Below are positions 31,103 to 63,870 of a DNA stretch of 64,000 nt, one piece after another; the first letter of the stretch is position 1; every line of letters starts with the position of its first letter. A model generated the notes under the pieces. The model was not told the DNA's origin, made no database searches, and saw only the letters and a program-made list of their open reading frames with translations. Source of the DNA: Okamejei kenojei (lineage: Eukaryota); NCBI GenBank assembly GCA_035221665.1, contig CM069162.1:24862001-24926000 (forward strand), read 5' to 3'. The position numbers and the translations under genes were made by a program.

Positions 31103-31916
31103 CTGCAAAGAGAAAAGAGAATGTTGAGAAATGGTTTTGTCTAGTTTTGCATTTGAAGTTTTATGTATAGTGTTGCAAAGCTAATACAAAGGAAATGTTC
31201 ATACTCACAACACAGAACAGAACATTTCTGGCAACCTTAGATATTATTTGACAATGTATTGTGCCACATCTATTTAACAAAAAAGGGCTAGTTGCATGCA
31301 TTCCTTGGCTTGTTCTGAATCTCTAATCTGCTGGACATGCAGTACAATCATCAGCAGAATTATGGAAAGTGCTGTCAATTTTACTATCAGGTGATCCTTA
31401 CTCAATAAAAAGCTAAACCCAGTTTGTGTTTCCCCAAAATATTTCAACTTCTGACTTGGACTAAAAATATGAATTCCAGAGGTGGGATGAGGTCTTCTGA
31501 TTTATCCACCTTAATGTGAATCCTCCTTCTTCTTGATCACAAACTGCCCTTGCATATTAGTGTGGTGAGAAAGGTGGATGGTAGAGCTGATCCACCAAAG
31601 GGAGATGCTTCCACTTCTCTGTTCAGATTGAGTGACAGTTTTTCCATTTTAATGAAATGCAGTTAACTTTGTTATGGAATTGATGATATATTTATTCACT
31701 AAATACGAGGAACAAATAGCACTGCTGAGGAAGCTTTTTTTTGCTTGCTTTTCCTGTTCCAATTTTTCCACAAATAAAAATCGTCATAAACACTCAATTT
31801 AGAAAAATATATTACATTAGTGACACAAGTCTTATATGTTAAACTGCACGGTAATGTCATGGATATGTGAATAATTCCTCCTAATTCTCAAAACATCATG
31901 CTAAGAATAATATTAC

Positions 31917-31961
31917 CTCCATCCTTTCTTCTTGATAATGTTCCCCAATACAATTTCTGCC
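31917..31961 (-). CDS. KCNAB2: KCNAB2 exon AEIVLGNIIKKKGW(R)
   Basis: 45 nt, cag|...|gtaata. Confidence 0.97.
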
Positions 31962-32258
31962 CTGTGGAGAAAGAAGAAAGTGGGGTTTAATATATTTTAC
32001 ATGTTACTTGGATAAGGATGTTACTTTTTGTTTTAAAGATTTGTTTTCAATCTTAGCTATCACTGCTTTCATTTCCATTTCCCCTCCCTGATTCTCCTCA
32101 TACCCAAGATTTTCTGAACCTAAAAGTACCTAAGATTAATTATTTTAAATCAAAATATAATTTATTTTCAGGGTGAAACATAGTAATAATCATCCCCAGG
32201 TTATTTTGTACCACTGGATGCTCAGACCGAGCATTTCCTGCTCATCAGTCACCCTTGT

Positions 32259-32383
32259 GGGGTGGAAGATTGCCACCTTCTCGTGGTCCACCTGCTTCGA
32301 CGAATGCAATCAACCCGGCGTGCACAATCAAATAGAACAAGTTGTCCTACAACTTTAGGCTGTGCACACTATACGCAAGAAGA
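32259..32383 (+). mobile_element. Short non-autonomous retroposon (Ingi/Vingi-like 3' end) with 5' HDV-like ribozyme, copy 1
   Basis: TSD agtcacccttgtg (32247..32259) / agtcacccctgtg (32384..32396); ATACGCAAGAAGA tail; homologous to 36379..36518. Confidence 0.8.
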
Positions 32384-33349
32384 AGTCACCCCTGTGAATC
32401 GAAACAATTTCTTATTCTGTATAGGATACTCCATTTCCAACCAACACATTTTTTGAGCACTGCAAGGACATTTGGATATCTCTGTCCTAGTGAGTCCTGT
32501 ACTATGCATGACAGGGCAATATGGTCTTCCTATCACAGAAACAAACTGGAAGGCCTACCAGGTACTAATGAAGTAAGTACCGTAAGTTTGAATTAAGTTT
32601 CCCATAACAGCTGTCCACTGGCAATCTCACAACACCTATTTAGTAACAATTACACTGTACCTTGCTGACGTTATATTTTTGTAAAATAATTTCTAGCTTG
32701 ATGACTCACGTACTTTTGAATTTGAGTTGACTGCAACATTTTTCTCTGGCAAGTAGCCCATTCCTCAATTTGGAGTTTCTTGCCAAGCCTTTCCGTTGTT
32801 AAAACCATGGATCAAAGAGCTGATGGCATTGAAGGCAAGGCTTGATTGTTGAAGGGCAATTGTCTCATCATAGCAACTATTTTTTGATTAATTTTACCCA
32901 AGAAAATCCCCTATAATGTGTTCCCGCTTAATAAAAAGCAGTGGATTTATACTGATTAAAATCTTAATTTGCAATGTCATACTTGGTGCAGTACCAATAA
33001 TTATGGGATTTTTGTTTTCTGGCTGGCTGATTTTCAGCAAGATGCTACAATTATTTTCATTGCCAGCTTTAATAGATGTATTCAAGGTGCTCAACTGTGA
33101 AACAAGCAGATCAACCAGACCTAGTGACGGCTAATGAGCAATCCTATTGGGTAATTAGCATTCTCAAATCCATGGGAATGGTATCTACAAACTCAATTAT
33201 TTACTATCCATAATCTTAATGTTGGTAGCTTAGCTGCGTTTATATGGGGTTGCCTGTGCATGTGTGAAAGCGTGCATTAGAGTGCATGTGAATTACTAAT
33301 CCTTTAATTTTGAAGTCTGTTTTCAAAATGAACTCCAGATTGTTAATTT

Positions 33350-33603
33350 ATAGAAACATAGAAACATAGAAATTAGGTGCAGGAGCAGGCCATTCGGCCC
33401 TTCGAGCCTGCACCGCCATTCAATATGATCATGGCTGATCATCCAACTCAGTATCCTGTATCTGCCTTCTCTCCATACCCCCTGATCCCTTCAGCCACAA
33501 GGGCCACATCCAACTCCCTCTTAAATATGGCCTACGAACTGGCCTCAACTACCTTCTGTGGCAGAGAATTCCACAGATTCACCACTCTCCGTGTGAAAAA
33601 TGA
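33350..33603 (-). mobile_element. CR1/HER1 3'-end fragment
   Basis: (ATAGAAAC)n tail then ggtgcaggagcaggccattcggcccttcgagcc. Confidence 0.88.
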
Positions 33604-33786
33604 GTAGTAATTATAATTGGTAGGTATGACTACTGAAACATTACATTAGTGTACATGAAAGATTTTTAAAGACAAAATAGTCCATATAACTTTCTTCCTC
33701 TGGAATTTTAGCAAGGGCATGTTGTGCATGATGGGAACAACTATTTAATTCTTTCTGTGACCATCATGGCTCTGATCATATTTTAT

Positions 33787-33790
<4 letters not shown>

Positions 33791-33830
<40 letters not shown>
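33791..33830. repeat. (TA)20 microsatellite
   Basis: Perfect dinucleotide run next to a LINE 3' end. Confidence 0.97.
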
Positions 33831-33834
<4 letters not shown>

Positions 33835-33839
33835 TTTTA

Positions 33840-34445
33840 AATTTATTTTTATTAGAAGCAATTGTACAAGGATAAGATGATCGGCATAACAATTATACAA
33901 TTATTGTACAACTTCATTTTTAACCGTATAACCTAAATTTAAAAAAAAGAAAAACGAAAAAGAAAGGAAAACAAGGAAAGAAGAACAAAAATAGAATGAA
34001 GAGATGAAATAGAAATGAGCAGGAAAAAGACCCCTAAGCTACCAAAGCAGTGCAGAAGAGAGAAAAGGAAATAGGAAAAGAAAAGATGGCAATATATCTC
34101 CCCCCCCCCTCACCCATCATGGCATTGGATTTAAATTTAAATTTGTGTTTAACCATTCTGTTGTTGTAAAAATTCAGTAAATGGTATCCATGTCTTAAGA
34201 AATTGATCTGTTTTTTCCGCCAAGACAAGCCTAATGTTTTCCAAATGTAGTGTCTCGGACATATCTGTAATCCACATCTTCACTGTGGGGACTGTTGTGT
34301 TTCCAAAATTTAAGTATTAATTTTTCACCATTATTAGGCCGTAATTGAGGAAACGTCTTTGAAATATCGTTAGCTAAGAGCAGGCCTCTGACATACCTAA
34401 TATGATCAGTTTTATATCTGGGTCCTATATTTTTTTTATGACAAA
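33840..34445 (-). mobile_element. L1/Tx1-like LINE 3' fragment
   Basis: Minus strand ends in AATAAAAATAAA after a pyrimidine-rich UTR; remnant ...FLKTWIPF... C-terminal pattern. Confidence 0.55.
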
Positions 34446-35359
34446 GGTGATCGATCATTTGGCACATTGAGCAACTCCATCAATCCCATTCCCCCATATA
34501 TTTCCATGTAACCTATTCTCTCTCGCATGATTATTAATTCCACCAGATTCTCTTGCCACCCACTTGTAAATTGAGTCATTTATTGCTTACTATCCTATCA
34601 AACAGCAAGTCCTTTGGGTGTCATCATGTTTTCACACAAGTCAAACCTATTGCTAGAGAAATGTATCATTTGAAAATACCATAATGGAATAAGATTCCAG
34701 CATCTGCAGATTCTTGTGTCACCATTGTGATAGTCATTTTTTTAAAAATGTTTTGTGATCACCTCCAAAATTGCACAAGTAGAGAAATAATGTATTATAT
34801 ATAGTTCCTCAATCATTTTTCAATGCTTCAGTGATTTACAATCAAAATTACAACAGACATACAGTACATTGAGTGCTGTGCAGAACACTTTGCAGCCAGT
34901 TTAGGTTCTACAAGGGTCCATTGATTGAAACATATTCTTTCTATGCCAATGTAATTCAGGTGATGGTCAGCACAAAGCATTTTAATTTGGCAAGACATAA
35001 TTTAAAGGTAGATTTGAAGTATTTCTTCAATTCATTATAATCTCTGCTAAAAAGATTGAGATATTCATAACATTAACAGTTAGAAATACTTCCAAAGATC
35101 AGCTGAATGGTCTATGAGTACTTCTATTTACCAGTAAATATACTTCAATTAACAATAACCCAGAGAACAAAAGATAAAAATGGGAGCAATTTGAAAGATG
35201 ACTGATAACATTTTCATAATCCTCTGACAGTTTCTGAATACTTCTCTTTGTTTGTTTATCCTAAAATCTCAATCTCAGTAGCAATCCAGATATGTAGTTG
35301 CAAAACAGCAAGCTCTATCAATTATACAGAAGGTTACCTCATGTCTTGGCTAATGGTTT

Positions 35360-35560
35360 AAGACAAAGTGCTGGAGTAAGTCGGGGGTCCGGGCAGCATC
35401 GCTGGAGAACACGGATAGTCAACATTTTGGGTTGGGATCCTTCCTCAGTCCCGACCTGAAACTTTGAATATCTATATTCTCCAGATATGCTGCCTGACCT
35501 GCTGTGTAACTTCAGCACTTTAAATCTTTTTTTTGTAAACCAGCCTCTGCAGTTCCTTTT
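35360..35560. mobile_element. Inverted pair of Penelope-type terminal fragments
   Basis: aaagtgctggagtaa...gcagcatc versus atatgctgcctgacctgctgtgtaacttcagcacttt; related fragments at about 1700, 4200, 39650, 49800, 63870. Confidence 0.6.
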
Positions 35561-36378
35561 GTCTGGATAATGAATTAGATGGCCAAGTTTACCAACCATA
35601 CAGTGATAAATGGTGGTAGGCATTGAAGGTGAAAATATAAATTAGAATGAGATAATGGGGATGATCAGCCATGATCACATTGAATGGCGGTGCTGGCTCG
35701 AAGGGCCAAATGACCTCCTCCTGCACCTATTGTCTATTGTTGAGATTTAACAACTCTGTGATAGATCGATTTTGATGCAGATAAATATGAGACCAGTCAC
35801 TTTGCATTCAGCAAGGACGGGATGGACTAATTTTAAATGAGGAAATCTAGAATTAATGTCCAAACAAATTTAAGAGGTGCACCTAAATAGATAATGGATA
35901 CATACAGATAATAATCAATAGAAGTTAGTTGTGTGAATTTACTTGCTTCACAAATTAGCTGTGACCCCAGTGAACTGCAGAAAGACTCAAGGGGCTAAAT
36001 AGATTACTCCTGTTCCCAACTTCTTATGCCTTGCAAAATGTGAGTTAAACTTAATGTTTTAAAAAAAATTTAAAAAGTGTGGTGCACATGGCTTTAAAAC
36101 ATCACAATTGATCAAGAGACAACATTTGATGAATTAGCAATGTAATAGTAATTAAATATATTTTGCCTTTAAACACAACTATTTTGTGCATTTCTTTTGT
36201 TTTACTGCAATTCTCAGCAATTCTTTACATAGATACATAGACACATGGACAATAGGCGCAGGAGTAGGCCATTCGGCCCTTCGAGCCAGCACTGCCATTC
36301 AATGTGATCATGGCTGATCATCCACAATCAGTACCCCATTCCTGCCTTCTCCCCATACCCCTTGATTCCGCAAGCCCT

Positions 36379-36518
36379 TCTTCTTCTTCTTTCGTGTGGC
36401 GTGCACAGCCTAAAGTTGTAGGACAACTTGTCCTACTTGATCTTCTGTTTGTACACGTCGAGTTGATTGCATTAGTCGAAACAGGGCGGACCACGTGAAG
36501 GTTGCAATCTTCCACCCC
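36379..36518 (-). mobile_element. Short non-autonomous retroposon with (GAA)n tail, copy 2
   Basis: TSD ccgcaagccct (36368..36378) / ccgcaaaccct (36519..36529); minus strand ends CCACACGAAAGAAGAAGAAGA. Confidence 0.85.
36465..36518 (-). ncRNA. Predicted minimal HDV-like (CPEB3-type) self-cleaving ribozyme, 54 nt
   Basis: GGGGUGG-AA-GAUUGCA-ACC-UUCACGU-GGU-CCGCCCU-GU-UUCGA-CUAA-UGCAAUC: P1 7 bp with G1-U wobble, P2 7 bp, P3 3 bp, CPEB3-like L3, J4/2 CUAA. Confidence 0.75.
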
Positions 36519-37242
36519 CCGCAAACCCTAAGAGCTCTATATAAGTCTCTTTTGAATGCATCCAGTGAATCGGCCTCAACAGCCTTCTGCGGCAGAGAAT
36601 TCCACAAATTCACAACTCTGTGTGTGAAAAGGTTTTTCCTGATCTCAGTTCTAAATGGCCTACCTCTTATTCTTAAATTATGGCCCCTGGTTCTGGACTC
36701 CCCCAACATCGGGAACATGTTTCATGCATCTAGCATGTCCAATCCCATAATAATTTAATGTTTCTATAAGATTCCCTCTCATCCTTCTAAATTCCAGTGA
36801 ATACAAGCCCAGTCGCTCCATTCTTTCATCATATGACAGTCTACATGATTAAACAGGAAGATATCAAAGCACCATTAATTGGTCAACATGATTTATATTA
36901 TGATAGCGCTAAATAACACAATTTCATGAGATTTGTTAAGAAACACATTACAATATTTGAAGTAACCAGCAATAGTTCTCATAGTCCAGAGCTAAATACC
37001 AATTGTAAGAAGTGCAACTATAGAAAATGAATCAACTGTTAGGATGTCCCAGCACTGCAGAAGAGGAATAGGACAATTATTGTCATGAAAATTCTAGGCT
37101 GGATGCAACAAAGTTGGGCAATCCTTGTTTACTGAGTTATTAGGTTGAGAAATTATTCCAATTCAAAAATAAAACAGAACAATCTGCTTGATTCATGCAT
37201 CATGCTGTACTCTGCAATGATCATAAAGGTTAGATGACCTAC

Positions 37243-37322
37243 TTGCCAGCTGCATAAACCTCTGCAGTGTCAAAGAGGTTAATTCCATTCTCATAGGCCA
37301 GTGTCATCAGCTGTTCAGCCAT
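37243..37322 (-). CDS. KCNAB2: KCNAB2 exon [26 protein letters not shown](K)
   Basis: 80 nt, AG/GT borders; carries the aldo-keto reductase catalytic Asp and Tyr (DTAEVY). Confidence 0.97.
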
Positions 37323-37389
37323 CTGAAATGAGGGAGACAATAAAGATTTATTGAACACATTCAAGCAGCTCATAAAGACAATCACAATT

Positions 37390-38118
37390 ATACTTTATTA
37401 GCCAAGTATGTTTTGCAACATACGAGGAATTTCATTTGCAAAGTCAGTCATACAAATAAAAAGCAACGGAACACACAAAACACATTTTAACATAAACATC
37501 CACCACAGTGACTCCTCCACATTCCTCACTGTGATGGAAGGTGAAAAAAAGTTCAAATCTCTTCCCTTTGTTCTCCCGTGGTCAGGGGACCCGAGCCCTC
37601 CGTTGTCGAGACGATCTTAACTCCCATAGCCAGCAGTGTTTTGGCCCTCCGCATCGAGGCGAACAGCTCCTGCATCAGGGGGATGTCAACTCCCCCGTGC
37701 CGGCGGTCGGGGCTGGTCGAGCCTCTGCATCGTTGGAGCTTCCCGACGAGCCTCTCCCGAGACTGCGAGCCCTTGATGGTAAGTCCGCAGGCTGCGGTTC
37801 CAGTGATGTCAGGCAAGGGATCGACTCCGATGTTAAGTCCACGCTCCGCGATGGGGCCCAAGTCAGTCTGAGGAGGCCTCAGCTCCATCAATGGTAAGCC
37901 GCAGAGCGACTGGATAATGCGATCCGGAAAATAACCGCATCTCCGGTAAGGTAAGAAACTGAAAAAAGGTTTCCCCCGATTCCCACCCCCTCCCCTCACA
38001 TCACATAAAACAAACCGGAGAACATTTAGACGAACTTTTAACACACACAAAATTTTAAAAAGAAGAAAAAACAAACGGCCGATTGGCGGGGCTGCCAATC
38101 GTGCGGCTCCCCGCTGGT
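37390..38118 (-). mobile_element. Non-autonomous retroposon with a Rex1/L2-like 3' tail (related 3' fragment at about 57750..57935 on +)
   Basis: Minus strand ends ...aaattcctcgtatgttgcaaaacatacttggctaataaagta; GC-rich body; no recognisable protein. Confidence 0.6.
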
Positions 38119-39994: not shown

Positions 39995-40225
39995 CCTACC
40001 AATTTGATCAACGTCTATTAAATATTAAATAGTCATCCTTTTCTTCTTCTATATGGCCCACTTGCAACAATTATAAATCCAGTTAAAGGTTATGTAACCT
40101 ATCTCATGCTCCTGGGGGAGTGTAACCCTTTAGCATCAGTTTACCAGAATACTACTATGAGGGCCATATAGAAGAAGAAAAGGATGACTATTTAATATTT
40201 AATAGACGTTGATCAAATTGGTAGG
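39995..40225. repeat. Perfect 65-bp inverted repeat with 101-bp spacer
   Basis: 39995..40059 is the exact reverse complement of 40161..40225. Confidence 0.95.
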
Positions 40226-41074: not shown

Positions 41075-44000
41075 CTATTACAAAATAAAAATATATGATG
41101 CAATTACAATAAATGAAACAATATTTTGTCAACATTATCATGATATTTAATTGAAGTTCTTGTTCCAATTTGTTCCATCAAGTTAGATCTTATCGTTCGC
41201 TCAATCCTAAATGTTTATCAAATATTTATACCACTTCACCATCACCATTAATAATGGACATTGTAATGTTCAACACTGCCTGAGTGAATGTGGAGGCAGA
41301 TTCTCTCATGACACTAGGACATATCCAGAAGAGTACATCAGTTGCCACGGAATATTAAGAGATGGACCATGTGTTGGTAAATGGGATTAGTATTGATGGG
41401 CATTGCTGGTTGACACGAACATGGTGAATGGTGAATGGAAGGGCCTGGTTTTGTGATGCTCGACTCTCTGACCTGCAACATTAATTCAGTTTTTCACTCA
41501 TTGTGGTTAGTGCCTGATCTACAGGGTATTTCCAGTATTCTTCTTTGTATCAAGTATCTGCCAACTACTGTAGTCTGCATTAGCAAGTCTATTAGCAAGC
41601 CACATTCTTTTATGTTTTTTCTCTCTCTCTCTCTCTATCTGCCCTTATTCATCTGTTAACTAGGTGGCACCAATAGCATTGTGGTCTCCACCCTAACATA
41701 AACATTCTTTATTCCCTCTGTTCCTCTCATCTGCTGCTTAAAATATATTTACGTTTTCCACTTCCCCAATTCTAACGAAGGATCATTGCTCTGAAACATT
41801 AACTCTCATCTTTCTCCATAATACAATTGGGTCTAGTCCAACCTGTGGACTAGACCCAACACATTCTCTTTTAATGAAAAGGAAATTGAGTTCATCAATT
41901 TTTTTGGAGATCCCAGGTGTGTCAGGCAACCGATATAAAGTACTGAGAAAGGAACGGCAAAAGGCACGTGATTAAAGTGTCATATAAAAGGCTACTGCAC
42001 AAGGGCTCAGGGTATTTGGTATATTGACATGGGAAGACAACTGGTTAACTGACAGAAAACAGTGTGGATAAAGAATCAATTTGTTTAATTTCTTAAAGAC
42101 TGCTGCACCACCGATGATCATGTCTTATGTTGTCTATGCTATAAGCTCCAGAATTCTTTCCTTTCAGATCTCTTTCTCACTCTTTTCCTTGTTAAGGTAC
42201 TCCTTAAAAATTGATAGAACATTTGGTCATCTGTAGTTTTCTCGTAAGGCTTAACATCAAATCCTTGTCATAATAATGTGCAGCAAAGTGTGATGGTTTA
42301 TAATTTAAATATTTTATTCTGACTTAGCAATGACAGTTTGGGAAAAGATGACCAGTTGTCAATGTAGCAGATGTTGTTGGTGCCAGAGGATATCAGATAA
42401 AATTCTGGATTAAACATGAGAGATATATTAAGACATCAGTGTGTGGATTCACCATTAGAATCAATCATTAGATTAAATGGCTTTCCACTATTACCAGAAA
42501 AATCTTACATTCTGTGCTTAAATAATAAATAAGTACATTATTAACTTGTGCGTTTAACTATGGAAGAATTTTTATATTATGTTGCGTATTTAAAAATGTA
42601 ATGGAAATGTGATATCACACATGACTTTTAAATTATATTTTTAGACTACTAATGAGAAACCAAGATTACAGATTTCCAATATGATTTACTGGAAGCACAG
42701 AATAGTCAGGACTAATCTTCCTCGAGTTCAAACTAATATAAAGCAGAGCAACAGAATTGATAAGAGAGAAACAAATCTGATTAAAAAAAAGGATGTATGA
42801 AAGACTTGGAATAAACAAACCAAAAGCATCAACAATTCAAAATTGGGAGTGCTGGAAATTAATCAAACTAGATTTCAGAGGATTTTCAGAATTACCAGTG
42901 AACTTTTATGTTTGAAATACAACACTAAAAATCTATTTTTACAAGACCAGGATTATCTTCATTTAACTTGTGCAACACATCCACTAAGCTTTTAGAGCGC
43001 TGATATACCCAGTTTCAAAAACATTCTGATATATTTAAAAAACAACATTTCTCAGTGGATGAGTTTAGGAATCATAAATCGGATAGAAGTTTGCTGCAAG
43101 ATGAATGATGTGATATCTATCCCTGTGAGTGAAGAAGGTCTGATTAAGTGAAGACAAATGACAGTACCCATGTAGGTGCTCAATGCCATTTCAACCAAGA
43201 ATAATGCGGGGATTGATTGTTGAGAAAACAGGACGTTGACCACAAAATGCACCAGAAATAGCATACAGCACATCAACATGCAATACTTGATCAACTGCAT
43301 GCAAAAATGATGTTGGTTCAGCAAGCAGTTCAGAAGCTAATCTAAAAATTGCACTGTCAAATTAATATGAACTCCTCTTGTATTCCCAAATCTCATTTTG
43401 CAGTTTATTTTTAAACCATTTTAAAGGTTAATTTTGAAGATAATTGTTCACAAGAAACAGGATAAATTCAATTACTGCAGTTTTAAGTATCAGTAAAATA
43501 ATCAACGATGCCATCAACTTCCAACAGAAGTGTGGATGCCCACTGATGGCTGCGTAACTCCTCAGCAAACAAGGCAGTGCTTGTGTGCACACAGCAGGAT
43601 CCAGGATAAACTTGATCAGTATAAACAGAAAGTAACAAAAGAAACCCAACAAAAGTGCCATGTAATGACAATTTCCAACAAAAAAAGTCTAATCACCCAC
43701 CCTTGACATTGAATTGCATAATTATCACTGAGCACCCCTTCCCCTCTGCCCTCCCACTATCAACATTCGGGGGATCACCATTGACTAAAACCTCAACTGG
43801 ACAAGCCACCTAATTACATTGGCTACAAGAGCAAGTCAGAGACGGAGTACCCTGCAATAAATGTGTACCTTCCTGACTCTAGAAATCCTTTATGGCATCT
43901 GTAAAATATGTCAGGATCATGGTGGAATATTTAATTTGCCTGGATAAGTGCAGCTCCACCATCTTTCAAAAAGCAATCCATGACAAGTAATTAGTTTGAC

Positions 44001-56416: not shown

Positions 56417-57706
56417 CTAGACTAAGTGGGACCCGTTGGGTGCCAGCATCACATGGAGGGGGCTGGTCCCCCAATGCAATATTCCACCTCTCCAACATTT
56501 CCAATATTGGTGGCCAGTGGGGGGAGGGGAGGGGGCTTTCTGGAGCGCTAGTATGGGTGTTGTACGCTGAAGGGACTGGTTTCCAGAGGGCTAGTATGGA
56601 CATTGTGGGCCGAATGGATTCTTGGGCTGGCAGCTCACTCACTCACGGCTGGTGGGCTGGCAGTTGACTCATGGCTATTCCTTGAAATTCCATTTCAAGC
56701 AGGGTGCATGGGCACCAAATTCAAGTGCAGTTTCATACCATTTCAAGCAGGGTGCAAGGCCACTAAAGACAGCGCGTCATGATCTCTCCCTCCCCCATCT
56801 TGCAGAGACTGAGCCACGCCCACACTTCCGGGTTTTATAGTCCCTCTCCCCCTCCCACAAGAAAGGGCATGGCCTTCAGGGCATGATTGACAGGAGAGAG
56901 AATCTCAACATTTTTTAAACTAATAACTCTTTTATTTTTCATCGATGGGAAAAGTCCTTGGCACCCGATGAGCGGAGGCGGACTCTGGGTAAGATGGCCA
57001 AAAATCACAGCCGTACATAGTAGCGTTTTTACTAAAATTAATATAAAGCACAAACAAGACGTGGTAAAGATTAGACATTTAATTATATAGAAGGCAAGGC
57101 AGCTCGCTTTAGCACTTTCAAAACCAAAGGCAAGGCAGCTCGCTTTAGCACTTTCAAAACCAAAGGCAACACAGCTTGCTTTAGCATTTTCAAAACCAAA
57201 GGCAACACTGCTTGCTTTAGCGCTTTCAAAACCAAAGGCAACACAGCTTGCGTTAGCACTTTCAAAACCAAAGGCAACACAACTTTCAAACCAAAATACA
57301 CTTTTGCATTTTCAAACTTCATTTTCAAACCACATTAAGGGCACTGACAGGTCAGTAAAACCACTCACAGTTTAGTAGACATTTGTTCAGTGTTATTCAC
57401 AGCTCAGACTGAGAATTGCGACCTCTCGCTCCCCCATCTTGCAGAGAACTGAGGCATCTCCAAACCTCTGGGTTTTATAGTCCCTCCGAAAGGGGCATGG
57501 CCTTTAGGAGAGAGAATCTAAACAGTTTTTAAACACTAATAACTCTTTTATTTTTCATCGATGGGAAAAATCCTCTTGTCCTGTGCAGCGAAGGGAGACT
57601 CTGAGTCAGATGGCCAAAAATCACAGCCGTAAGTGGCAGCGTTTTTTCTAAAATCAATATATAGAACAACAGGAAGTGGTCAAGATCAGACATTTAGTAA
57701 TATAGA
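56417..57706 (-). mobile_element. Non-autonomous Helitron, composite
   Basis: Minus strand 5'-TC (TCTATATTACTAAA), 3'-CTAG preceded by the hairpin GGCACCCAACGGGTCCC; inserted between A and T with no TSD. Confidence 0.85.
57091..57296. repeat. 36-bp minisatellite, about 5-6 units, inside the Helitron
   Basis: Unit aaaggcaaggcagctcgctttagcactttcaaaacc. Confidence 0.92.
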
Positions 57707-58948
57707 TTTTCCTCTTCACCTTAAATCTAAATAAAGATAAACAGGAAGAAAATTAGACTTTATCCATCACAATGAGGAACGTGGGGCGCTGTGGTGGATG
57801 TTTATGTTAACTTTTATGTAGTTGTGTGTCTTATTGCTTTTCTTGTTTAGTATGTATGTATGGCAATTGCTGTATGGCAATTCGAATTTCAATGTACCTT
57901 AATTGGTACATGTGACAATAAACTGACATTGAAACCTTGTCCTCATGTCCTTGATTCGCCTACTCTGGGCAAGAGACTCTGTTCATCTATCTGATCTATT
58001 CCTCGCATGATTTTATAATCTCTACAAGATCACCCCTCATCCTCCTGCGCTCCAAGGAATTGTGTCCCAGACTACTCAACCTCTCCATATAGCTCAGACT
58101 CTCTAGTATTACCAATATTTTGTGTAATGTCCTCTTCCGCGCATGCCCACCCGCGCTGCAGTGTAAATAAATCAACTAACAGACTTACATGACATATAAA
58201 ATATAATGTACTCCCCAAAATGTTAAGTATTTTAAAAGTTGCATTGGCTGCATGAGGAGTTAATGAGGCTGGAGTTGAGTAGGTGTTGGAGGCGAGGAGG
58301 ATTCTTCTTACCATATAACACAAGGTTCTAACACTTGAAGGTAAGGGGGGACAAGACTAGCATCAAATTAGTAAGATTAAACGAGAACTCACCTGTTCGA
58401 AGTTTGATCGTTATTTTACGAGGAGTTACGATGAGGGATTACGTGAAGAAGAGCCCGCCTCACGCTGGTAACGGCATACTTCAAAGCAACGGCATGAAAA
58501 ACACAGAACACCAAAGCCGGAGTAACATAGTAAGGCTCATAAAAAGACTTAGAACCACCATTTGATCATTTATTTTACGAGGGTGGGAGTGGAGGGCACG
58601 TAATCCCTCATCGTAACTCCTCGTAAAATAACGATCAAACTTCGAACAGGTGAGTTCTCGTTTAATCTTACTATTTTACTTCGGAGTCACGTGAGTGACT
58701 ACGTGAAGAGTTTTAAAGCTTTCTGTGTTTTTTATGTCGTAGAATTAATCCGTACGACAGTCCGGCTAAGTAAACACATACATGAGAAAGCACACAAATG
58801 TTAGATCTTTTCATAATTAAGTTTTTTAAATGGCTGAAAAACCATATAATACCCTCCTTATATTTGAGGGAAAAATGATTACAAGTGACAAAAGATATCA
58901 GTGACTACACAACTGATTATAGCAATTAATAGCAAACAAAGCAGGTGA

Positions 58949-59880
58949 TTATAGTGCTCCCAACACCGCGTGTCCAAAGCTTGTCATAGTGTGAACAGGT
59001 TTGTTGTAGAACTTTGAAAAAGTTTCTTCTTTACTCCACCCTGCGATTTTTAAAAATATGCTCGAGAGGTACGTCCCGCCCCTTCGCCGCGGACGTAGCT
59101 GCCGCCCTGGTGGAGTGAGATTTGAAGACATCAGTGTCTACTCCCGCTAAAACCAACACCTGTTTCAACCATTTTGAGATAGTTTGAACTGAAGCTTTTG
59201 TGTGTGGCTTTTTGTGCGTAAGCAGCAATGTCTTTTCGTTTCCTCGAAAAGTGTCCGTCACTTTAATACATTGGTTCAAATGTCTAACCACACACAAAGC
59301 AAGCTCAATATGAAAAGCTTGAAAGGTTACCTTTGTTCCAGATCTCCCTGGTCTACTTTGTTTGATCAGATCGTAAACATAGAATACAACGTTATCTGTA
59401 GTCACATGCATACAGTCTAAACGCAACATTTGTAAAGTTTGCACTCTTTGGGCTGAGACCAGTGACATTAACATGACCAATTTCAATGTTAACCTATCCA
59501 ATGACAACCCTTCAATTGGCGTCCATTCTCTAAGTAGAGCAAGTACTATGCTCACATCCAAATCTCTGTATATCTAGGTTTTGGCGGATTCATGTGAAAA
59601 ATTCCTTTCATGAATCGTGATATTAATGGATGCGACCCAATTGATTTCTCACCAGTCATAAGTCCTAAATAGGACGACAAGGCACTGCGTGCAGTGTTAA
59701 TGGCACTGTAACTTAAATGTTGGCCAAAGCGCAAATTGGCAAGGAATTCCAAAACATGAGTAACATTCACATAATCATCAGAAATATTTTGACTGTGTGC
59801 AAAATTCTTCCCATTTCTTAATATGTGTCATATATTGTTTCTGTGTGCTATCTCGCCATGATGCGCCAATAACTGTCAAG
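58949..59880 (-). pseudogene. DIRS tyrosine recombinase (frameshifted)
   Basis: ORFs 59552..59770, 59031..59561, 58949..59131: LSYSAINTARSALS; SAQR; LIKQSRPG; HSTRAAATS; AGWS..TFSKFY. Confidence 0.9.
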
Positions 59881-59916
59881 TTTGGTCCGACAATCCCAGT
59901 TCCTGTAGTGGTCTGG

Positions 59917-61580
59917 TCAAAACCTGCAGATTAACAAATTCATATATGCATATAATGGGTAATCTTTATTTGTTACTGGATTAGTCAAGATATCACTACA
60001 GTTAAGAATCTGCATATACGGTTCTTTAATCATATTCAGCATAACTGGGAACCAAGGTTGAGTTGGCCAATTTGGCACTACCAACAATCCGGAAGCTGAA
60101 TCTTGCTCTATTTTCTTCAAGCATCTCTGGATCAGAGCAAATGGTGGAAAAGCATAAAAGAACATTTTTCCCCAGTGTAATAAAAAATGCATCTACTGCA
60201 ACTGCGTCCGGGTCGTGTTCCCAAGACACATAATGATGCAAGTGATGATTAAGCCTGGATGCAAACAAATCAATTTCTGGCAACCCAAATCGTCGAACAA
60301 TATTCTTAAATATTGCTGGCTTAAATATCCATTCCGTATTATCTTTAAAAATCCTGGACCTTTCATCTGCTACCACATTGTCTTTACCTGGAGTATAGCT
60401 TACTGCAATCCATATCTGCCGACCAATACACCATTGCCATATCTCATTGACCAGACAATCACATGATACTGATCCAACTCTCCCCATGTGATTAATGTAA
60501 ACCACAGCTGTTTTATTGTGTAATTGTATTAACACATGCAGACCTTGTTTAGCACAACAATATGCTTTAAGCCCATAAAAGGCCCCCAATAACTCCAAAT
60601 AGTTAATACCATACTCTTGGAGAAACACTTGTTCTTCAGTTTTCCATCTACCTCCACAACTGGAGGATAAATCTGTGGCCCCCCATCCGAGAGCACTAGC
60701 ATCTGTATGTAAAACCATTTCAGGCTGTTTGATCATAATATTTATTAGCAGCTTGTGGGACATTTTCCTTTTTTAACCCACCATTGTAAATTCCAATACA
60801 GCTTCTTTTGTTAATTACATAGGCCTGTCAAATGGCCTGCCTTCTCTTTGAGAGCTTGTATCTTGTACCTTCGAAGATATCAATAAATGTAATGAACCAA
60901 ATTCTACTGCAGGAAATGCTGCTAGCAGTTCACCAATGGTTGTCACCATTTCTCGGATGGAAGGATAAGGTTTTGAATGAGATAATGACAAGTTACCAAA
61001 ATATCATCGACTTTAACTGTTGGTAAAGGTATTAACATAGTCACTGAGTTAATTACAAACCCCAAAAGTAAATTGTTTGTGCTGGCTGCAGCTGGGGCTT
61101 AATTAGATGAATTAAGAACCTTAGCTTACCACAAAGCTTTAGTAACTGAAACTGAGTCCTCAGCTGACTCCTGATAATCACTAATGACCAGAATGTCATT
61201 GAGATAAGCCATAATGATGTGCATTTTGTGCTCTAATTGGGCTAAACTGGTTTCAACAGTTTCGTAAAGAGTAAAAAGCTGAACTCAGTCCATTTGGCAA
61301 AGCTTAACTGCCATAATTGTCACAACCAATTAAAATTTAAGTACTACCGAAACCTGATGCATAGGTACAGAATAATAAGCGTCTTTTCATCAATCTTAGC
61401 CATATAACAACCTGCTGAATTAAATATTTTGCAGTATTCAATGACTCCATTTGAACATGTTTGTATTCTACAAACTTATTTAGACCTGTAAGGTCCAGAA
61501 TACTTCTGCAACCATCATCTGTAATGCCTTCTAACATTAAAGACAAATTTATGCTTGTGTTCAAAATCTTTTCCATTACC
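59917..61580 (-). pseudogene. DIRS pol: RT, RNase H and adenine-methyltransferase-like domains (frameshifted)
   Basis: CRSILDLTGLNKFV; IMAYLNDILVI (YLDD position); HTDASALGWG...INYLELL; IDLFASRLN...DAF; YAFPPF...VVPNWPTQPWFP. Confidence 0.9.
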
Positions 61581-61749
61581 TCTTTTCCAGATAATTAGGC
61601 AATGTGAACATAAATCTCTGCTTTTTCAATTGCAGAAAACACGAAACATAAGCAGGTTTATTCTGTACAGGAGGATTAACCTCTTTTTTTTTTTTTTAAA
61701 AATAATAGTAGTTAATGAAACTGCTCGTAATATACTGATCAAAAATAAT

Positions 61750-63100
61750 AGTAAGCCAGTCTTAATAAACTTTTTGTAATCTCCCTCTAACTGGAGATTA
61801 ATCCGCAGTTTCTTTAAGCAGGGAACAAGTCTTTAATTCCTCTGCATATGAGCGTGGTGGTCTCCTTATCCCCTGAATTCGGGTAAGTATTTGGTTGTGC
61901 AATACAATAAACTTCCTTGACATATTTCTGCCTCTTATTTGCAATATCAAATCCCCTTCTGGGCGAAAATACCTTTTTCGTCCAAAGACGAAGGTTTCAT
62001 GCAGCTAAAATATTTAGCTTTTCATCCAATTTCAATAAATTAGGCAGATTATTCCAAACAGATAACCAAGAGCTTAAACACCACTTGCTCGACACAGGTA
62101 TGCAACCTTGGGTGAAAAATGGGCCAAATAGCCATTTATATTATATAAAATTTCATAGAAAGAATTGCACAATAGCGTCTTTATTTTATGTTTTCCTTTC
62201 ATCTGCCCAAAAGCCATAATAGCAGCAGAATAATTTGTGAGGATTTTTAAACCTCACTATTTGACGCTCTCATATTTGGAGTCATGGATGCCCATATTAA
62301 CGGATAAACCGTAGGCTCTTCCAATGAGGCACAATTTCCTGTGCTGTGCAATTTTAATATTTCAATCATTACAAAATCATGAAGTTGGTGAGATACCATA
62401 TATATATGTTGGCAGCTAGGATTTCTTCCATAGCCTCACCACTTCCTTCATATATAGCAAAACCTTTTGCTATTCCAGGCATCTTTGGCCTCTTTTCATA
62501 TTTTTTCATTTTATTTTTATTTTTATTTTGTGGTGTGCTTTCAAAATGCAAATCACCATCAACAGGGTCTGCCTTCTGCAGCCCTAAATCAATTGGGATT
62601 TCATCCCATGAGACTTCTTCCGGCCCAAATCCTGGGTCCGGAGTTCCAACTTCCAATTAGGCCCATGGCCATATTCAGAATAATTAAACCCCTCAGGGCT
62701 AATTTTAGGAACCTTCAGGGTACTTTGACCCTAGTCTCATAATTATTTGGAGAACTTTCTCCATATGCTCCATAATCAGTTCCACATAGTTTACTTATCT
62801 GGAGGACTTTTCAATGTCAGAGTCATCAGAACCACGGGCCTCTCAGATTTTTTATTTTATTCCATTTTTCATATTCGGGAGCATTTCTCTCCGTGGTTAT
62901 CATTTTGTAAACTAATTCGCTAACGGGTATATCTGCGGCCACCGGTATCGGAACCGGCTCCGCACTAGCTTTCCCGTATATTTATTTTTCACCCCAGGAA
63001 GCATTTAACCCGCGAATATAAGTTTACTTCATCATCTGTGCTTATCCAGCACTAATATGACTCTGACCTGATTTAATATATTTCCTATACTGCTGGACCT
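61750..63100 (-). pseudogene. DIRS gag-like ORF1, heavily disrupted
   Basis: GNCASLEEPTVYPLIWASM at about 62285..62342 resembles the NC..L..P.VN..IW motif; position fits ORF1. Confidence 0.55.
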
Positions 63101-63870
63101 ACCCAGCGCCCGCTAAGAAATCCCAACTTTACTGTTCTTACCTGCGGGCCGTTCCGACCGCTGCGAGGAGCTGCTCCCTTACTGCAGCTCCACCTTCTGC
63201 CGTCAGCGTCGACGTCATGCCGTTACCAGCGTGAGGCGGGCTCTTCTTCACGTAGTCACTCACGTGACTCCGAAGTAAAATTAGTGTTACAGAATGCATG
63301 ACATTTATGAATCACTAGAAATGAGTACATAAAAACTCCTTTACAAATAAGCCAACTTTGTATCTATTGTTAAGTTTGTGCTTATGCATTGTGGACTTTA
63401 TGCATCTCTGAACTTTAATTGATATTCTAACATTAAAAAAATGGATGAGATCCTTTTCTATTTTGAAGTTTGTCAATTAATCTTTAGATTGCTCCTTTTA
63501 CAGGATCTATGACTTTTTTTTAAAATTGAGTTTCTGAAATGCACACATGGATTAAATAAAGACTTGTAGTTAAGTACCAGGTTTACTATCTCAGGTATTA
63601 ATTATCCACCGTAGTTTACAGATGTACATACTATACCACTCAGGGAATGCGGCATCCACAGCCCTAGAATATTCATCCTGGGAATCACTTTAAAGCCACC
63701 TGAGCAACTGTCTCTACTGATTGAATAGGTCGTATCACATCGCTGAAGAATTTGCCATTTGTTGAATTACGCTTGTCTACCGGTTCCTCATAGAAAAGTT
63801 TGTGTATAAAATATTCATGACCATAAATCAATAAAGCAATTGTCTGCACAGAATATTCAATAAAGGAAAG

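Follow-up and report, generated by a model that had tools for sequence, protein, structure and literature searches.

A 54-nt sequence on the minus strand of the 64,000-nt stretch of Okamejei kenojei DNA analysed in this study (the window) carries a real HDV-like ribozyme fold of known kind, in a new minimal, high-copy vertebrate form. We hold with considerable confidence that this 54-mer forms the 5' head of a non-autonomous retroposon of 140 nt, which arose by internal deletion of a Vingi-like LINE and reached thousands of copies, and that the fold likely self-cleaves to release the element RNA from transcripts of the host. The evidence comprises the fold itself, the start of the copies and of the LINE at the same base (G1), target-site duplications (TSDs), ends shared by element and LINE, copy numbers and the recurrence of the fold in four LINE families. 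The element, with its nucleotides numbered from G1, has the following features.

36379..36518, minus strand: whole non-autonomous retroposon of subfamily A, 140 nt, consisting of LINE 5' end, short linker, LINE 3' end and (GAA)n tail
36465..36518, minus strand: HDV-like ribozyme fold without P4, cleavage predicted 5' of G1 (36518), C at 36475 as catalytic candidate
36440..36464, minus strand: rest of the LINE 5' UTR, element nt 55 to about 79, from alignment to the 5' end of LINE copy L213
36400..36457, minus strand: predicted long stem-loop of the body (MFE fold), nt 62-69 pairing with nt 112-119 and enclosing a hairpin of nt 83-101
36379..36426, minus strand: LINE 3' end, made up of the final ORF codons with the stop, the 3' UTR and the (GAA)n tail, 40/44 identical to the 3' end of LINE copy L143

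Parsed on the minus strand, the 54-mer forms the nested double pseudoknot of HDV-like ribozymes that the first-pass annotation had described, with all 17 pairs of P1, P2 and P3 standard and no mismatch. The 7-bp P1 (GGGGTGG/CCGCCCT) contains the G1·U wobble and one internal U·G, J1/2 is AA, and P2 (GATTGCA/TGCAATC), P3 (ACC/GGT) and L3 (TTCACGT) complete the core. P1 is followed by GT, P1.1 consists of C22-G37 plus a U·U, a 5-nt loop (TTCGA) replaces P4, and J4/2 reads CTAA (36475-36472), with the candidate catalytic C (C44) first and the conserved A after it. A relaxed HDV descriptor had no match in 3.2 Mb of window sequence after approximate dinucleotide shuffling, and on the real window it returned 36518 and one loose, G·U-rich site on the minus strand at 43879, which is probably a chance match. 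The comparison with Rfam, proposed earlier as a check, pointed to the anticipated model at a score short of acceptance: for a 121-nt stretch the CPEB3 ribozyme (RF00622) came out best at 23.1 bits (E 2e-4), below its gathering score of 35, HDV-F-prausnitzii reached 16 bits against a gathering score of 44, and a 5-kb scan around the element reported no ribozyme, neither CPEB3 nor HDV-F-prausnitzii. The likeness to the CPEB3 ribozyme in L3 and in the GU after P1, pointed out in the first-pass annotation, is borne out by the comparison with RF00622.

Prediction of nested structure gave a P1 probability of 0.02 with a 40-nt leader and of 0.95 with an 80-nt leader for the copy in the window, so that its folding in place is uncertain; among 80 perfect heads the probability exceeded 0.5 in 52 with the shorter and in 39 with the longer leader. 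In subfamily A a competing hairpin between nt 4-10 and L3 is possible according to predicted folding, and at this site pairing of the upstream TSD with the 3' strand of P1 is possible and may be in competition with native folding. We consider self-cleavage of the 54-mer in vitro likely.

Alignment to the LINE identifies element nt 1 to about 79 as the LINE 5' end, with the first base corresponding to LINE nt 1, and nt 93-136 as the last 44 nt of the LINE 3' end, and therefore the element is a bipartite non-autonomous LINE. It lacks both the coding middle and any tRNA, 5S or 7SL head, and a tRNA-headed SINE identity was rejected because no such head is present. The analogy to L1Tc/ingi and R2 elements drawn in the first-pass annotation thus gave the correct identity, a LINE-derived element with a 5' HDV-like fold and shared LINE ends. 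The exact 54-mer occurs 1,259 times genome-wide (602 and 657 on the two strands; reversed control 0) and the exact first 38 nt 2,325 times (control 0), which marks the sequence as a feature of a mobile element and not as a switch made for the gene in which this copy lies. From 11 independent chance copies in 1.22 Mb of fetched flanks (17 matches, of which 6 were dropped as split halves of one copy) we estimate a family of about 25,000 copies, with a range of about 12,000-45,000.

In two sets of copies chosen on the middle or the 3' part of the element, not on the head, 23/30 and 23/30 begin with G1. Among copies for which a TSD was identified, its end lies no more than 2 nt from G1 in 14/17 and 16/19. 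TSDs of family copies measure 7-18 bp, and the (GAA)n tail is common to element and LINE. Heterogeneous starts and missing helix covariation had been named in the first-pass annotation as signs against its reading; the starts are as uniform as just described, and covariation was found across families (see below). Within the family, head changes are one-sided only, and the three subfamilies differ in the head only at tolerated sites, namely P1 pair 5 (U·G or U-A), J1/2 (AA or GA) and J4/2 (CTAA or CGAA).

Inserted copies decay neutrally. Family-wide, the catalytic C is substituted in 126 copies and a control C, which lies in a different sequence context, in 143, so that no selection on the catalytic C is seen in inserted copies. 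Mean divergence of the family is 4.1% (66 ungapped of 80 copies), and the copy in the window, with no change in its 54-nt head and 3 private changes in its 74-nt body, is consequently of ordinary age. Two of its private changes, both A to G (36436 and 36432; 0/66 other copies), close A·C mismatches and yield a perfect 8-bp hairpin, possibly through ADAR editing of an RNA intermediate or through quasi-palindrome correction. As a gauge of orientation bias, the T-A skew of the flanks, calibrated on one gene only, was negative in 75/118 loci (mean -0.009 +/- 0.005); under the same single-gene calibration, masked flanks gave negative values in 49/80 loci (p 0.057) and unmasked flanks in 45/80, and there was no G-C signal. 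In three independent copies (L106, L408, L421) another abundant short repeat appears to be inserted at about the same point of the element (nt 75-86), which suggests a preferred insertion target there.

The partner LINE was found by means of a search pattern in which a coding 3' end precedes the shared tail; this gave 51 matches, and the 20 that were read are 3' ends of one LINE with reverse-transcriptase-like frames. Searches for an ATG after nt 79 and for a changed base before the 3' part returned variants of the short element only, the latter revealing subfamily C. The LINE begins with the same ribozyme, of the subfamily C type, followed by about 60 nt of UTR and the ATG. Copy L210 of this LINE, 3,043 nt in length, has G1 as its first base, the same 3' tail and a TSD, contains endonuclease (PF03372) and reverse transcriptase (RT, PF00078) domains and is collinear with a 1,019-aa single-ORF protein (P0001). 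Neither 9 open stretches of L210 nor the Pfam lists precomputed for 13 homologues showed an RNase H domain, fragments being of lower sensitivity in such a search. Judged by its anatomy, a single ORF with APE and RT, the partner LINE fits a Vingi-like element, and an RTE partner was rejected in view of Vingi-like protein ends and homologues. All translated LINE copies are broken, and hence no currently active driver was found.

Two structural peculiarities of the LINE were observed alongside. In 15/30 loci with the LINE 5' region (L179-L208), a set in which one locus is the query, two overlap and one inversion measures only 31 nt, this region is inverted and stands head-to-head with a far 3' part, and loci L125, L129, L135, L140, L143, L159 and L174 show an inverted LINE 5' region likewise; these inversions resemble twin priming, except that a large gap usually separates the two pieces. 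In addition, 8 nt of the LINE 5' UTR just after the ribozyme (36457-36450) are complementary to 8 nt of the 3' UTR just before the tail (36407-36400). Such pairing, as modelled, could join the ends of the LINE RNA and may be linked to the inversions and to the bipartite deletions.

Three further Vingi-like LINE families of the O. kenojei genome (L259-L278), with 34-40% protein identity, each begin with an HDV-like fold. In representative copies, which are decayed and have 0-2 broken pairs, 6, 6 and 8 of the 17 pairs are changed on both sides relative to the window sequence, and P1.1 covaries as well, one family having two C-G pairs there and another U-A. All four families retain the J4/2 C at the catalytic position, a 7-bp P1 from the first base of the element, P3 and L3. 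Since the fold is kept in the three other families despite their different sequences, it matters to the element. A long P4 region is kept in those three and lost only in the family of the window element; Rfam reported no ribozyme family in 8 loci of the Vingi-like families.

The P4-less layout was also met outside the vertebrate genome. A core-motif search of viral and metagenome contigs gave, among the matches listed, tRNA-adjacent sequences with the same layout; a strict parser passed 10/116 core matches among those listed, and no RT similarity was found at these loci, again among the matches listed. The theta class is P4-less with this layout and is active and dependent on the catalytic C in vitro (PMC10879173, Kienbeck 2024), and in the available portion of that paper nearly 99% of minimal HDV-like ribozymes are placed in phages. 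The architecture of the window element is that of the phage theta ribozymes and looks new for a vertebrate; we found no earlier vertebrate report, and one may already be on record. Several JGI metagenomes contain a separate multi-copy HDV-like family with a long P4 region and a G-rich leader (L279, L286, L288, L289, L292, L298 and related loci), with no RT similarity nearby, and other metagenome loci (L337, L344/L345) carry tandem HDV-like copies.

We propose a model in which a copy would be transcribed inside a host Pol II transcript, for example within an intron, and the RNA would then be cut 5' of G1 with the participation of Mg2+ and C44, leaving a defined 5'-OH end protected by the pseudoknot. 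The APE and RT protein of the LINE would bind the 3' end and perform target-primed reverse transcription, producing TSDs of the length found in the family. Catalysis, mode of transcription and mobilisation are likely in analogy to L1Tc, NARTc, SIDER and R2 (PMC4035085, PMC6765202, PMC8256844, as far as their available portions extend). Active 5' HDV-like ribozymes are described for L1Tc, NARTc and SIDER elements, some well-folded SIDER ribozymes being inactive in vitro (PMC4035085), and for RTE, Ingi, Vingi and R2 bipartite non-autonomous LINEs have been described (PMC5786205). As a counterpoint, an internal promoter such as Pr77 of L1Tc could also explain the start at G1.

That counterpoint belongs to a broader alternative, in which the fold would be kept for a non-catalytic job, be it as an internal promoter at the DNA level, for 5' end protection, for binding of the LINE protein or for translation initiation, and the P4-less version would cleave weakly or not at all. 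Precedents exist, since the 77 nt of L1Tc serve as promoter as well as ribozyme and help in translation is proposed for R2 ribozymes (PMC6765202, PMC8256844, available parts), and both the single pair plus U·U of P1.1 and the competing hairpin of subfamily A would suit poor cleavage. However, a C at the catalytic position of J4/2, a 7-bp P1 at the first base, P3 and L3 are maintained in four families although the helices have been rebuilt, and theta ribozymes without P4 and with the same layout cleave in vitro in a C-dependent manner (PMC10879173, available portion), so we consider the alternative quite unlikely. A chance match of the parse within an ordinary repeat could draw on the Rfam score under the gathering threshold and on the one other loose descriptor match in the window. 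Against it stand the empty shuffles, the coincidence of the start of the fold with the element boundary and the compensatory changes across the four LINE families and the phage-type loci; this covariation refutes a chance fold, whose probability we regard as negligible.

The preferred reading, a mobile element headed by a likely self-cleaving ribozyme, has to be related to the gene in which the copy resides, described by the following features.

37243..37322, minus strand: KCNAB2 coding exon preceding the element, with its donor GT at 37242
36519..36529, minus strand: upstream TSD, 11 nt
36368..36378, minus strand: downstream TSD, 11 nt, 1 mismatch relative to the upstream copy
36245..36841, minus strand: older LINE 3' relic interrupted by the element, repeat families D3/D4, ORF 36410-36721
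32259..32385, plus strand: second element copy within this intron, antisense to KCNAB2, subfamily B (J4/2 CGAA)
31917..31961, minus strand: next KCNAB2 coding exon, acceptor 31962, 4,556 nt downstream of G1

KCNAB2 encodes a potassium-channel subunit. The peptide of the upstream exon (37322-37243) is identical to Kv-beta-2 in 25/26 residues, and all 12 PDB matches are beta-2. With the donor at 37242 and the acceptor at 31962, the KCNAB2 intron spans 37242 to 31962 and G1 becomes intron base 725 in sense orientation, in agreement with the placement about 725 nt past the donor given previously. G1 directly follows the upstream TSD copy, with 0-2 G of ambiguity, and the statement that the element begins at the predicted cleavage site holds here and for most family copies. 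Upstream of this site lies the TSD within the LINE relic, which we take to be CR1-like from the motif at the end of its ORF, and not a tRNA; no tRNA was found in 31900-37400. Contigs of related organisms cover the unique flanks of the site and break within the repeats. Contigs that join 36374 to 36526 without the insertion are present in all four runs, and in three of the four there are 444, 454 and 44 contigs, respectively, that depart from the stretch at precisely 36518. The antisense copy at 32259..32385 is decayed, a 1-nt deletion breaking P1 and one P2 pair being lost.

The first-pass annotation had seen in this arrangement an independent CPEB3-like case in a neuronal gene, with possible cleavage of the nascent pre-mRNA in competition with splicing. 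Under co-option, the copy would tune KCNAB2 output in this way. The sense orientation, an intact head (0/54 changes) beside 3 private changes in the 74-nt body and the distance of 4.56 kb to the next exon are compatible with such a role, given that the CPEB3 ribozyme, with a half-life of 2-3 min, is separated from the following exon by 9.9 kb (PMC10919898, available part). However, an unchanged stretch of 54 nt is expected about 10-15% of the time at a decay of about 4%, the intact head is shared by 1,259 copies, the copy sits within a LINE relic and has a decayed antisense relative in the same intron, the catalytic C is unprotected family-wide, and the TSD may misfold this very copy. Co-option therefore appears highly unlikely, and the earlier interpretation as an independent CPEB3-like case is not supported: the KCNAB2 copy is one ordinary insertion, with body decay at the ordinary level of about 4%, and no selection is seen at KCNAB2. 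Retroelements with 5' HDV-like ribozymes are already known, which makes a single site of this kind ordinary. Cleavage of nascent KCNAB2 RNA is possible as a by-product, perhaps weakened by the upstream flank according to the predicted folding, and a measurable effect on KCNAB2 is unlikely.

Other repeats of the window were recorded in passing. A perfect 65-nt inverted repeat with a 101-nt spacer at 39995-40225 is MITE-like, and at 56800-57700 a 36-nt tandem array (5 copies) lies between two 143-nt direct repeats 616 nt apart. Retrotransposon remnants with terminal inverted repeats occupy 58365-63281, with frames at 59031-59573 and 60026-60772; we take them to be DIRS-like, the first frame presumably being recombinase-like and the second RNase H-like.

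The independence of the likeness to CPEB3 is likewise doubtful, since it is probably due to shared Vingi ancestry. The 5' end published for the gharial element Vingi-2_Gav (PMC5786205, supplement, as far as available) matches the Rfam CPEB3 consensus at 46/48 compared positions, in a comparison made by eye with P4 left out (35/37 in nt 2-38 and 11/11 in the 3' block). Since helices can be rebuilt with other sequences, as has happened in these four families, this identity points to common descent, and at the level of sequence it suggests that the mammalian CPEB3 ribozyme is a retained Vingi head. The body of an alligator SINE and the Vingi 5' ends of lancelet and sea urchin in the available supplement are also similar to the CPEB3 consensus. 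The ribozyme is reported as not found outside mammals (PMC8233481); the available portion of that paper makes no mention of a retrotransposon, transposable or mobile-element origin for it, and CPEB3 is absent from the main text of PMC5786205 to the extent available. A literature search over titles and the starts of abstracts found no paper stating the Vingi-CPEB3 link or this ribozyme-headed family, either of which may already be on record.

A P4-less minimal form reported almost only from phages thus occurs in a vertebrate, where identical copies number at least 1,259. With near-identical ribozymes by the thousand, placed in varied flanks and orientations, it can be tested across a whole genome whether self-cleavage inside introns is harmful to host genes or tunes them, an effect so far studied mainly at the CPEB3 locus. 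The match between Vingi and CPEB3 would provide an origin and an outgroup for a ribozyme described as mammal-only in the available part of PMC8233481, and the 140-nt natural template delimits the minimal set of cis signals for the Vingi clade, which is now being employed for gene insertion (PMC13708176, available portion). In the widest scenario, a promoter-less retroposon derived from Vingi would have spread active P4-less HDV ribozymes through the genome by the thousand, intronic copies in sense orientation would cut pre-mRNAs in vivo, and the CPEB3 ribozyme would be a retained and co-opted Vingi 5' end; we put it forward tentatively, at clearly less than even chances for the whole.

Compared with known systems, the CPEB3 ribozyme (RF00622) shares with the element L3, the GU after P1, the G1·U wobble, a one-pair P1.1 and the sense intronic position, whereas the sequences of P1, P2 and P3 differ and the element is without P4, in keeping with a score below the threshold. 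The CPEB3 ribozyme is single-copy and conserved for about 159 My according to the literature available in part, in contrast to a multi-copy, neutrally decaying element whose host gene here is KCNAB2. The theta-type loci L304 and L362 have in common with the element a 7-bp P1, a 7-bp P2, the ACC/GGT P3, L3, GT, the 5-nt loop and CTAA; both sides are changed in 7 and in 6 of the 17 pairs, respectively. L304, L339 and L362 adjoin tRNA genes and the element does not; theta ribozymes are phage-borne, whereas the same fold here heads a vertebrate retroposon. Vingi LINEs are compact, about 3 kb long, with a single ORF, APE and RT and no RNase H (PMC13708176, available portion), features that the partner LINE shares with Vingi-2_Gav, Vingi-1_BF, Vingi-2_SPur and Vingi-1_Acar, and the length of Vingi-2_Gav (3,128 nt in the partly available source) is close to that of L210. 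Published Vingi 5' ends in the available supplement of PMC5786205, read by eye, show HDV-like folds that keep a P4 stem and a GCG/CGC P3, in contrast to the family of the 140-nt element, which has lost P4. The closest counterparts in organisation are NARTc/RIME/SIDER, the internal-deletion derivatives of Vingi and the R2 SIDEs, which likewise consist of the two ends of a LINE, 5' and 3', after deletion of its middle (PMC4035085, PMC5786205, available portions). Like the retroposons of the NARTc/RIME/SIDER type, as described there, the element places an HDV-like fold first, is dispersed and TSD-flanked and has no small-RNA head; unlike them, it resides in a vertebrate, is only 140 nt long, of which 54 are ribozyme, has no P4 and reaches a copy number of the order of 10^4 with 1,259 identical heads.
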